Shown here: positions 19,195 to 44,582 of the stretch, in pieces
Position numbering within the stretch: position 1 is the stretch's first letter
How the letters are laid out: each line of letters starts with the position of its first letter
Assembly: GCA_963783375.1 (NCBI GenBank)
Contig: CAWANH010000028.1
Span: 1 to 64,000 of the forward strand
Direction: 5' to 3'
Length of the DNA stretch: 64,000 nt
DNA from: Candidatus Eiseniibacteriota bacterium
GTDB lineage: Bacteria; Eisenbacteria; RBG-16-71-46; JABDJR01
Position numbers and translations under genes: made by a program
The notes under the pieces: generated by a model
What the model saw: only the letters and a program-made list of their open reading frames with translations
Database searches by the model: none
Told to the model about the DNA's origin: nothing

Positions 19195-19885
19195 CCCCGG
19201 GGAAGCAATGTTCGCAATAAAGCCTTTATCGCGACGCCGGTCCCGTGGTGGCAGTGAGCGGTCGGCCGTTGTCGCGCTCTCCCGGAGACGCGGGATGTGT
19301 ACCCGGGGAAGCAATGTTCGCAATAAAGCCTTTATCGCGACGCCGCGGCCGCTACGGAGTCGCCGACGGGTCCTGGGCCGCGGCGCGGCCGCCGGGGCCG
19401 GCCTGCCCCTGAGCGAGGCGCGAATCTGAGGGCGCGATGGGAGCGAAGCGGGTCCCATCGCGCACGAAGAGCGAGCGGCGGAACGTCCGGTGGACGGTCC
19501 GAGCGAGCGCTGAGCGCCGAGACGAAGGGGTACCGGCCCCAAGGCCGCGCCGGGGACCAAGCCGGTGCTCCCCCGGGGAAGCAATGTTCGCAATAAAGCC
19601 TTTATCGCGACGCCGCGGCGGCTACGGAGTCGCCGACGGGTCGTGGGCCGCGGCGCGGCCGCCGGGGCCGGCCTGCCCCTGAGCGAGGCGCGAATCTGAG
19701 GGCGCGATGGGAGCGAAGCGGGTCCCATCGCGCACGAAGAGCGAGCGACGGAACGTCCGGTGGACGATCCGAGCGAGCGCTGAGCGCCGAGACGAAGGGG
19801 CACCGGCCCCAAGGCCGCGCCGGGGAACGAGCCGGTGTTCCCCCGGGGAAGCAATGTTCGCCATGAAGCCCTTATCGCGACGCCA
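19195..19885. repeat. Composite repeat: four 45-bp palindromic motifs and two near-identical 270-bp units
   Basis: ccccggggaagcaatgttcgcaataaagcctttatcgcgacgccg at about 19195, 19301, 19571 and 19841 (last degenerate); units 19301-19570 and 19571-19840. Confidence 0.9.
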
Positions 19886-21055: not shown

Positions 21056-22927
21056 TCACAACCCGTACTGTTCCCGCAGAGCCGACTCCTCCTTGGATCG
21101 TTGCTCATCGGTAAGCGCTGCGCCGTAGGCCTTGAACTCGGCCAGGTACACGCTCACGCTGGCCTGGGGGAATCCGGTCTCGTCGCTCGCCCCCAGAACC
21201 GCCCCGGCCAGGGTCGAGAGCGGCGTGGTCAAGGATGGATCCGATGCCTGGAGTGAACCGTTCACGTAGATCGACATGCCCTCGGCCTGCGAGAACCGGA
21301 AGGTCAGGAGCTCGTAGTCCTGCTGGGAGGGGAGCAGGGTCGGCGCGGTCAGGGTGAGGCCGTCCCCGTGCGAGAACAAGACGTGGTTGTCGTCGGCGAA
21401 CCCCAGCTCGAACCCGGTCCCGGGATTGTGGTTCGCGCTCCAGGCGAACCGGACCGGCTTGTTGATCCCGGGCTCGGTCATGTTCCGCACCACCGCGAAC
21501 ACGGTGTAATCGGTGTTCTCGAATCCCTGTCCCTGGAGGCGCAGCATGCCCGAGGAGCTCTTGGCGCTGTACTGCCAGGCCTGAAAGCCCACCGCGCTGC
21601 CCCCTCCGGGGGCGTCGTAGCTGAACCCGCAGTAGGTGAACGCGGTCGGGACGGCGTCGAGCGCCTCGTTCCCGAACTTGTCCTTCCACCGCTTCACCGC
21701 GTTCGCGCCGAGCAACGGGTCCGTCTCCACCCCGAAATCGCCGCTGTACCAGACGATCGGGTTGGGGGAGGTCACCGCCACCGGCTGGCACTCGGTGACA
21801 TCGAACTGGTTGTTCACCTTCACGTAGACCGTCTTGTTGTCCTTGAGCGCGCGCAGGGTATAGGAGAGCGGACGCCCGGTCCGGATGTCGCCGCCGGTGG
21901 TGAGGAAGTCGCGCACCGCCCCGTAGTCCCCGTTGAAGGTGGCCAGGGCCTTGCTCTGGTCGCCGCCCATGGCGAACACCTGGATGGTGGTGTTCTTGAG
22001 CTCCTTCACGTACTTGGCTCCGCCGGAGATCGAACCGCCGGCCACCGCGGCCTCATAGCTGGCCTTGACCGAGGCGGCCAACGCCTCACGGGACGCCTCG
22101 GATTCGATCAGCAGGTAGAAGATCCGCCCGTAGGTCACCGAGGAGATGTAGGTGGCCGGATTCCCCGGCCCCACGTAGCGCTCCAGGTCCGAAGGCGTCA
22201 CCTCCGGCGCGAACACCTCGTCCAGGGACGTCGGCCGGTCGAAGGACATCGTGTAGTAGATCTGGTCGAGCCGCACCAGCCAGCGGTGCAGCGAGGAACT
22301 CTGCGAGAACTTCACGCTGGCGTCGAACTTGGACGAGATCGTCTTGACGTTCACGTTCAGGTAGGCGGCGAACTGGTCCCTCGACTCCACCTCCTGGGAG
22401 TGATAGGTGAAGTTCGCCGCGCCGATGCCGTTGTTGCTGGCGATGATGTCGTTCATGGCCTGCCGGATCGCGCCCTGGGTCATCTCGGGCACGGTGACCG
22501 CCACGTTCTTGGACCCGTTGATGAGGTCGATGGAGATCGTGCCCGGCGCCCGCTTCACGTCGATGGGATCCGGGGTCGCGTTGGAGATCGACGCCCCCTG
22601 GATCAGCGCGCCGGGGTAGATGACCTCGGCGTTGGGATCGAGGGTGGCGTAGTCGGTGGGCGCGCTCTGGCGCTCGACGGTCCTGGTGGAGCAGAGCCAC
22701 CGGGTCCCGTCGCCGTCCACGTAGTCGCTCGAGTCCTTCACCGTCTCGTGCTCGTAGGTGTCCACCGGGGCGAAATCGCCCCCGGCGTCGAGCACGTCCT
22801 GGTACTCGCCGTTCGAGATCTTGGGCGCGGTGGGCCCGCTCTTCCCGCAGGCGGCGACCAGGAACAGGAGCCCGATCAGGAAGGCCGCCGAGGCGGCGTG
22901 CAAACGGAGGTGCATGGGGATGCGCAT
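21056..22927 (-). CDS. Cholesterol-dependent-cytolysin-like (thiol-activated cytolysin family) lipoprotein with C-terminal LamG/ConA-like domain
   Basis: Lipobox LVAAC; VIYPGALIQG, ISIDL, QIYYT, YISSVTYGR, PLSYTLR; tail SIYVNG..LAEFKAYGAALT. Confidence 0.8.
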   Translation of the reverse strand: MRIPMHLRLHAASAAFLIGLLFLVAACGKSGPTAPKISNGEYQDVLDAGGDFAPVDTYEHETVKDSSDYVDGDGTRWLCSTRTVERQSAPTDYATLDPNAEVIYPGALIQGASISNATPDPIDVKRAPGTISIDLINGSKNVAVTVPEMTQGAIRQAMNDIIASNNGIGAANFTYHSQEVESRDQFAAYLNVNVKTISSKFDASVKFSQSSSLHRWLVRLDQIYYTMSFDRPTSLDEVFAPEVTPSDLERYVGPGNPATYISSVTYGRIFYLLIESEASREALAASVKASYEAAVAGGSISGGAKYVKELKNTTIQVFAMGGDQSKALATFNGDYGAVRDFLTTGGDIRTGRPLSYTLRALKDNKTVYVKVNNQFDVTECQPVAVTSPNPIVWYSGDFGVETDPLLGANAVKRWKDKFGNEALDAVPTAFTYCGFSYDAPGGGSAVGFQAWQYSAKSSSGMLRLQGQGFENTDYTVFAVVRNMTEPGINKPVRFAWSANHNPGTGFELGFADDNHVLFSHGDGLTLTAPTLLPSQQDYELLTFRFSQAEGMSIYVNGSLQASDPSLTTPLSTLAGAVLGASDETGFPQASVSVYLAEFKAYGAALTDEQRSKEESALREQYGL

Positions 22928-23247
22928 GACATGGTTCTCCAGGGGTTCGCGCGAGACCGGGCGTGGGGGCACGGTCTCCCGGCGGGGGTTGGGATGCTTC
23001 ACCCTGTAATGCGGATTCCGGGCCCGGGATACGCAACCGGTCGGCACCTCCCCGTCGACTCTTCCACAACCGACTATCCGACAAAGTGTTGCGGGCACCG
23101 GAAGCCGGCCTCGAATTCCCCGGTCCGTTCCCGAGATACGGTTTGATTCCCGGGGTCCCGGGGACCGTCCCGTCCGCCGGGTTTCCTGGGGCCCGGAGGA
23201 CGCTGCGGATGCCCGCGCTATCCCGAGCGGGGGGGGGCGGGGCGCCG

Positions 23248-44121: not shown

Positions 44122-44189
44122 CCGACCCGATGGCCCGCGCGGGACCGAAGGGTCCCCGAGGGACACAGCGCGGCGACGGGCGCCCGGGG

Positions 44190-44387
44190 CGACCCCCGGC
44201 GCGGACTCCGGGGCGGCCCCGGAACGACCCCGGCGCGGACTCCGGGCGGCCCCGGAACGACCCCCGGCGCGGACTCCGGGGCGGCCCCCGGAACGACCCC
44301 CGGCGCGGACTCCGGGGCGGCCCCCGGAACGACCCCCGGCGCGGACTCCGGGGCGGCCCCCGGAACGACCCCCGGCGCGGACTCCGG
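44190..44387. repeat. ~36-bp tandem repeat, about 5.5 copies, each with a hairpin
   Basis: cgacccccggcgcggactccggggcggcccccggaa; tccgggg/ccccgga stem; lies between convergent genes. Confidence 0.9.
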
Positions 44388-44388
44388 C

Positions 44389-44526
44389 CGGCTGCCCTTC
44401 GGCTCGTCGGGTCCGCTCCCTCGGACCGTCCACCGGACGCTCCTTCGGTCGCTCCTTCACCGCGAAGGGGCCCCCGCTTCGCGGCCCTTCGCGGTTCAGA
44501 ACGCCTCCTCGCCCGAAGAGCAGCCG
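44389..44526 (-). repeat. Diverged inverted copy of the structured element at 19381-19552 and 19651-19822
   Basis: Exact 20-mer ctcggaccgtccaccggacg (44420-44439) is the reverse complement of 19484-19503; same hairpin order; closing stem cggctgcccttcgg/ccgaagagcagccg. Confidence 0.8.
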
Positions 44527-44582
44527 TCCGTCGCCGCGCCGCAGGCACATGACCGGGGCGCACACTGTCGAGCCGGACCGCG

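Follow-up and report, generated by a model that had tools for sequence, protein, structure and literature searches.

The stretch of DNA analyzed here (the window) comprises 64,000 nucleotides of the source genome, G000, and is considered alongside the genomes of its relatives (G001, G002, G003, G004, G006, G007, G030 and others). Between 19302 and 19841 on its plus strand lie two tandem units of 270 bp (19302-19571 and 19572-19841), each composed of a companion repeat and a foldback element. The first copy of the element (type A, 172 nt, 19381-19552) has a closing stem with GA-rich internal loops that opens into a three-way junction bearing two hairpins, P2 and P3; the second copy (19651-19822) is 98% identical to it. 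Both had been recognized in a first-pass annotation, as had the hairpin GCGCGATGGGA..TCCCATCGCGC (P2 of copy 1, 19432-19463) with its GCGAAGC tip (a C-GAA-G triloop, 19443-19449) and the hairpin CGTCC-GGT-GGACG (P3, 19484-19496), and all were found as described. The closing inverted repeat, put at ~28 bp, is present and measures ~25 pairs with internal loops, near the claimed length. A diverged, inverted copy had also been noted at 44389-44526; this copy (type B) is real and lies on the minus strand, but it is longer than claimed (44373-44541). It shares with the plus-strand copies the exact 20-mer attributed to it, which starts at 19484, and its P2 tip carries a 29-mer that recurs exactly in the rod-form element found at the ends of HNH nuclease genes in G004. 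An array of ~36-bp tandem repeats (44182-44387, minus strand) starts within its 3' end. Two features of the window had been overlooked: the duplicated unit is the full 270 bp and not just the element of ~170 nt, and the spacer holds four copies of a ~44-nt companion repeat, P, in which a CCCGGG-centred palindrome, CCCCGGGG, is followed by GTTCGCAATAA and a short hairpin. These lie on the plus strand at 19196-19239, 19302-19345, 19572-19615 and, in a diverged form, 19842-19885. As a separate observation, the minus strand of this environmental bacterium's DNA has an open reading frame (21056-23098) whose product pairs a thiol-activated cytolysin domain (PF01289, E 4e-44) with a LamG domain at its C-terminus and has no NCBIfam match.

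Copy 1 folds with a z-score of -6.5 under DNA parameters and -7.4 under RNA parameters, and none of 200 shuffles folded as well. Its opposite strand reaches -5.1 (RNA parameters) and the type B copy -5.5, and in 15 of 15 copies it is the GA-rich strand that has the lower score. The claim that G-T wobbles mark a single folding strand is borne out by 53 G-T against 22 A-C oppositions in predicted pairs. Because gaps distorted the RNAalifold consensus of the copies, the fold of copy 1 was used in its place, after removal of 10 poorly supported pairs and addition of one. In this structure 88.5% of cells are paired, as opposed to 36-50% in slid controls, with none of 500 shuffles reaching the observed value; the pair counts lean toward the structure of copy 1, whose pruned fold served as the reference. 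Thirteen of the 53 pairs have changed on both sides, a figure to be read as support rather than as a probability, because the structure derives from copy 1 and the copies are related. The closing stems covary rather than keep their sequence, unlike the conserved terminal inverted repeats of a DDE-type MITE, and the ends of the G000 copies likewise vary and covary, with no fixed terminal tetranucleotide discernible by eye. The earlier description of a covarying structured element thus stands.

What had been counted as three copies is a far larger family. A profile search of G000 gave 29 matches, all intergenic by our own gene calls, and none in the reversed genome used as a control. A covariance model built from 15 copies and searched in 61 genomes of the class recovered 23 copies at 18 loci in G000, again all intergenic, together with 9 copies in G003, 5 in G002 and 3 in G004; relatives of the element are carried by three genus-mates and one sister genus, and the model found none in the remaining 57 genomes. 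In G001, which the model missed, a variant that keeps the layout accounts for 27 pattern matches. The further copies and the structural covariation proposed as a check on the family were both found. The genes neighbouring the G000 copies are functionally unrelated to one another. The forms of the element differ in the P2 arm, which may be short (types A and B), extended by 25 nt, or of type C, with a hypervariable segment of 27-28 nt. Type C copies (~215 nt) occur in G000 on contigs C28 (713378, 754423 and 1498050) and C17 (101812) and in G002 (L233), and in these five copies the hypervariable segment sits between two GTGAAC repeats in a well-conserved scaffold. Of 19 full copies, 16 have C-GNA-G at the P2 tip, and G001 has GAA, GCA and AAA variants; GNA triloops are unusually stable in DNA. 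Tandem arrays of varying unit length occur, and partial copies in G001 mostly start or stop at the P2 tip, in part through tandem amplification. The G004 element is a rod form, with 19 tip loci in that genome, five of them at HNH genes.

Beyond the class, a pattern scan of all genomes proved too loose, returning at least 122 stretches. Among the matches listed, those that also matched the profile were five loci of the G001 and G003 forms and one further locus, and the others were taken to be chance or an unrelated Nocardioides repeat; the taxonomic range given here is consequently a lower bound. Two patterns found nothing in viral contigs, phages gave no match, and a single 40-nt match in plasmids was taken as chance. 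The Rfam scan that had been suggested found no family of release 15 that matches the element, whether by gathering score or with E up to 1, and among 18 variant loci it identified only RNase P and a tRNA, elsewhere in those loci. Several observations were made in passing. One metagenome holds a separate, MITE-like rod repeat of ~175 nt that shares the tip and is sharply bounded by CTAA..TTAG (L289, L297-L299, with further loci at L302-L306, L309, L313-L315 and L320), and at L293 an inverted pair of three-way elements (1-150 and 2462-2599) surrounds a prolyl oligopeptidase gene. Large tandem arrays of repeat P without the 170-nt element are found in G000 at C28:377440-378433 and 1544780-1545900. 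Contigs C1, C13, C14, C18 and C21 of G000 contain duplicated runs of genes, one copy often fragmented, which suggests strain mixing or assembly redundancy.

Comparison of filled and empty sites had been another check proposed at the outset. The pyrC-carA spacer measures 589 bp in G000 and 73 bp in G001, the hyuA-hyuB spacer 421 bp in G000 and 54 bp in G003, and the covariance model found the element in none of eight orthologous spacers fetched from relatives. The copies in G000 were therefore inserted, or else cleanly lost elsewhere. The window locus itself has no syntenic empty site in the relatives, where gene order differs, and the contigs compared with the locus were fragmentary and yielded no empty site that could be used. 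Neither a target duplication nor a circular intermediate nor cleavage was seen, and the empty sites are ~80% diverged, too far for a duplication to be read. Taken together, copy number, covariation, the empty sites and the lack of an Rfam match indicate that this is probably, as had been proposed, an undescribed, non-autonomous mobile family under structural selection. The observations above directly support its standing as a multicopy family, hitherto undescribed, that is structurally constrained and folds on the GA-rich strand. With respect to host genes in G000, copies in co-directional spacers are sense in six cases and antisense in four, while six more lie in convergent and two in divergent spacers, a mixture that does not fit a cis-acting RNA. 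No significant replication-strand bias was detected (11 of 18, p 0.48). The element likely acts as folded single-stranded DNA.

One gene flanking the element encodes an HNH endonuclease; it is among five paralogs in G000, and G001, G003 and G004 have 7-11 copies each. These proteins, of 420-570 aa, combine a helix-turn-helix (HTH) domain, a zinc finger and an HNH domain, with no CTPase domain matched. Across 16 proteins the catalytic His and Asn and the zinc Cys residues do not vary, and an intact HNH site is predicted. A structure model (mean pLDDT 63.7, with domains at 70-90) aligns the N-terminal domain to the DNA-binding domain of Noc over 103 residues (Z 10.0, rmsd 2.5; Foldseek E 0.02), although for a helical domain a Z of 10 falls in the range that the comparison tool calls possibly commonplace; Pfam HTH_ParB matches two of six proteins. 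The N-terminus is accordingly predicted, from the model, to adopt a ParB/Noc-type DNA-binding fold. None of seven proteins scanned matched PF02720 (DUF222) above its curated cut-off; among five genomes, a match just below it came from G004 (24.2 bits, cut-off 24.4), and hhalign against two true DUF222 members gave E values of 0.005 and 0.22. On this sequence similarity the nuclease may, weakly, be called DUF222/13E12-like, and it is not a Pfam DUF222 member. None of four proteins matched IscB over its full length, the similarity being confined to the HNH stretch (48-51 bits, cut-off 175). GA-rich repeat arrays in inverted orientation were seen to enclose two true DUF222 genes from Nocardioides (L129:3001-4866 and L172:3001-4960).

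At two of the five HNH genes in G000, full copies lie inverted immediately upstream; downstream of a third there is, as a weak case, a 33-nt fragment of the element's 3' end, and the remaining two genes lie ~250 bp from contig ends. Downstream copies or fragments on the same strand were found at five of seven HNH genes in G004, at two of eleven, closely related, in G003 (none at the other nine) and at eight of eleven in G001, of which two are identical duplicates. The GA-rich strand is directed away from the nuclease gene in every one of the 19 placements. Four HNH paralogs at different sites in G004 retain their similarity as far as the element and lose it at its 3' end or no more than ~20 nt from there, and at L261 of the same genome an inverted pair of elements surrounds an HNH gene with an internal stop. 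These counts are not independent, because adjacent copies have in part been inherited together; over 1300 nt L056 does not differ from L062, and L085 and L086 are 98% identical. Furthermore, the association runs in neither direction without exception. The element is missing from all 20 HNH loci examined in other families, from all five in G006 and from the one in G002, and these 26 loci, with the nine of G003, indicate that it is not a required end of the nuclease family. Conversely, 16 of the 18 element loci in G000 lie far from any HNH gene, and the type C copies are not adjacent to one.

The palindrome of repeat P provides a further connection between element and nuclease. It corresponds to the two commonest CCCGGG-centred 14-mers of G000 (33 and 24 copies), and it recurs within the HNH genes themselves, 332 nt before the HNH motif in three of the five G000 genes and 367 nt before it in a fourth, being absent from the fifth. 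Genes of G004, G006, G015, G046, G055 and G067, drawn from more than one family of the class, carry it 332-338 nt before the motif, with arms that are altered yet still palindromic. In G000, 14 of 18 element loci share their spacer with the palindrome repeat, compared with 43 of 627 spacers of at least 300 bp, although the associated p of 1e-14 is overstated because the pattern was drawn from repeats near elements and HNH genes. Co-location extends to 15 of 17 loci in G001 and to 5 of 12 solo copies in G004. Identification of the palindrome as parS was rejected; the three parS-like sites of G000 lie elsewhere, at C28:767846-770202, probably near the replication origin. It was also rejected as an SOS box, being found upstream of neither recA nor lexA in G000. 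Even so, LexA may bind some copies of P: in family f10 a similar 14-bp form lies ahead of genes linked to lexA, and SOS induction is described for 13E12 genes (PMC13157036). The arrays also harbour other DNA. Behind HNH genes of G001, IS110 elements, one full and one truncated, lie inside the palindrome array (L098, L100), from which it follows that such arrays attract mobile DNA. The pyrC-carA spacer bears CCCGGG palindromes in G004, G006 and G007 as well (L249, L250, L252), and in G004 they bracket small cargo genes that by eye resemble a toxin-antitoxin pair.

Our best reading, held with as much confidence as doubt, is that the element forms the end of an HNH cassette, works much like a REPIN as single-stranded DNA and has also spread alone. 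A rather unlikely alternative is that some other enzyme (HUH, GIY-YIG, IS110 or DDE), lost, unassembled or unrecognized, moves a REPIN- or MITE-like single-stranded DNA element that inserts into palindrome arrays and is no more than a passenger on HNH cassettes. Rods that share the tip and have defined ends exist without the nuclease, as this would predict: G030 has nine such loci with CTAG- or CTGA-type ends and no match to the nuclease profile, and none of 38 metagenome tip loci, some with CTAA ends, matched that profile, many of these loci being short and three holding the three-way form. The bare HNH genes of other families and the IS110 insertions into the palindrome arrays of G001 point the same way. 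The search for such an enzyme, however, gave little. The HUH (RAYT/TnpA) partner that had been suggested was not found, with Y1_Tnp in none of six family genomes searched (93-100% complete). In 10 of 11 genomes of family f10 a conserved, single-copy Y1_Tnp-like gene follows lexA directly (L346-L355), and none of the ten fetched, the single Y1 gene of G030 among them, is flanked by the element; these genes are preceded by a common 14-bp motif resembling an SOS box and appear to be domesticated. A reverse transcriptase flanked by copies had been another suggestion, and G000 contains no match to a reverse transcriptase, IS91 Y2, DUF559, IS110 or the IS110 protein of G001; Y2 and DUF559 matches do occur in G001 and G003, none at known element loci. 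GIY-YIG matches lie in long frames (246-672 aa) away from known element loci. Moreover, a passenger would not be expected to keep one orientation beside the HNH genes of four genomes, nor to have a boundary at its end.

Two further explanations find little favour. One, improbable, casts the element as a non-coding RNA or even, in its most far-reaching version, as a scaffold or guide RNA of the HNH nuclease, with the ~28-nt type C segment serving as guide. The RNA folding score, the wobbles confined to one strand, the frequent position downstream of the nuclease gene on its sense strand and the five type C copies with a variable segment in a conserved scaffold all speak for it, but with respect to host genes the element occurs both sense and antisense, nothing resembling a promoter or terminator was found around the window copies, and the tips are triloops rather than RNA tetraloops. 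The guide idea in particular is at odds with the type C segments themselves, as four that were tested have a nearest genomic match with at least six mismatches and look like decayed homologs, while the single type C copy compared with phages had no match; the distance of these copies from HNH genes and the restriction of IscB similarity to the HNH stretch also tell against it. Very improbable, in our estimation, is a domesticated cis-acting hairpin (an mRNA stabilizer, attenuator or nucleoid-protein site) spread by ordinary repeat recombination with no dedicated enzyme. The intergenic position of every copy, the tandem arrays of varied unit length and an abundance in convergent spacers (6 of 18 loci, set against 101 convergent among 1181 large spacers) would suit such a hairpin. 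Functionally unrelated neighbours, empty orthologous sites and the lack of a poly-T terminator would not, and the link to HNH genes would go unexplained.

Returning to the cassette-end reading, the observations establish the copy number of this intergenic foldback, its covariation, its presence or absence at orthologous sites, its constant orientation beside the nuclease genes, its duplication together with them, and a CCCGGG-centred palindrome that occurs within those genes and next to most copies of the element. We regard the chances as evenly balanced that the element marks the ends of HTH-HNH genes, likely acts as single-stranded DNA and is likely spread by the nuclease, with or without its gene. 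A mechanism can be envisaged in which the HNH protein, as a dimer, would attach to the palindrome in the way that Noc attaches to its own similar site, and the HNH domain would then introduce a nick in or close to the foldback while this is single-stranded. Repair or strand displacement would then copy the unit into other palindrome-bearing spacers, and the outcome could be copies standing alone, tandem arrays, and half-copies with a break close to the tip of the hairpin. More tentatively, and with the odds against it, nucleases that join a ParB/Noc-type HTH to an HNH domain might constitute a third repeat-spreading class beside RAYT and Ssn, one that binds an NBS-like palindrome, cuts a branched foldback of single-stranded DNA at its ends and moves both itself and gene-less copies. 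DUF222/13E12-like HNH genes are widespread, multicopy and linked to genome rearrangement, and this lineage offers a candidate palindrome for binding, a structured end, a 3' boundary that is sharp, and a copy flanked on both sides. If the proposal is true, such proteins gain a defined substrate and mechanism, and should the protein cut folded single-stranded DNA site-specifically it would be of interest as a tool; if the nuclease link fails, the element is another lineage-specific REP-like repeat. Searches of the open-access literature turned up no account of the element, none of HNH genes of this kind with structured ends, and no substrate or spreading mode for DUF222/13E12-like HNH proteins.

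Several known systems invite comparison. REPs and REPINs are extragenic, multicopy hairpins in tandem clusters, confined to a lineage and found beside a candidate enzyme, the RAYT transposase (PMC3116915, Bertels and Rainey 2011). Our element resembles them in each of these respects, its confinement to the lineage being vertical, but it is a branched fold of 170-215 nt rather than a doublet of short REPs, and no RAYT turned up in the six family genomes searched. RAYTs are HUH enzymes present in single copy, while the HNH nuclease next to this element is multicopy. Ssn is a GIY-YIG single-strand nuclease of ~94 aa whose gene is flanked by hairpin SRM repeats of 20-50 nt that also occur genome-wide (PMC11893778). 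The IS-like layout of repeat, gene and repeat, with hairpin repeats dispersed beyond it, is common to both systems; the element described here, however, is ~170 nt, and its partner is an HTH-HNH protein of 420-570 aa for which single-strand cleavage is putative. The 13E12 (DUF222) genes are described as recombination hot spots rather than as structured-end cassettes (PF02720; PMC13157036, PMC3592412), and they share with the nuclease a multicopy habit, great length, a C-terminal HNH domain and a weak N-terminal similarity, while differing from it by the PF02720 match that it lacks above cut-off. For Noc and its NBS, and for ParB and parS, the likeness lies in the predicted N-terminal fold and in the companion palindrome, which resembles the NBS consensus TATTTCCCGGGAAATA (PMC7383237); here the domain is instead fused to a zinc finger and an HNH domain with no CTPase domain matched, and binding is putative. 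The element belongs neither to the REPINs nor to the Ssn repeats, but it is these two that it works most like; its partner stays below the PF02720 cut-off.
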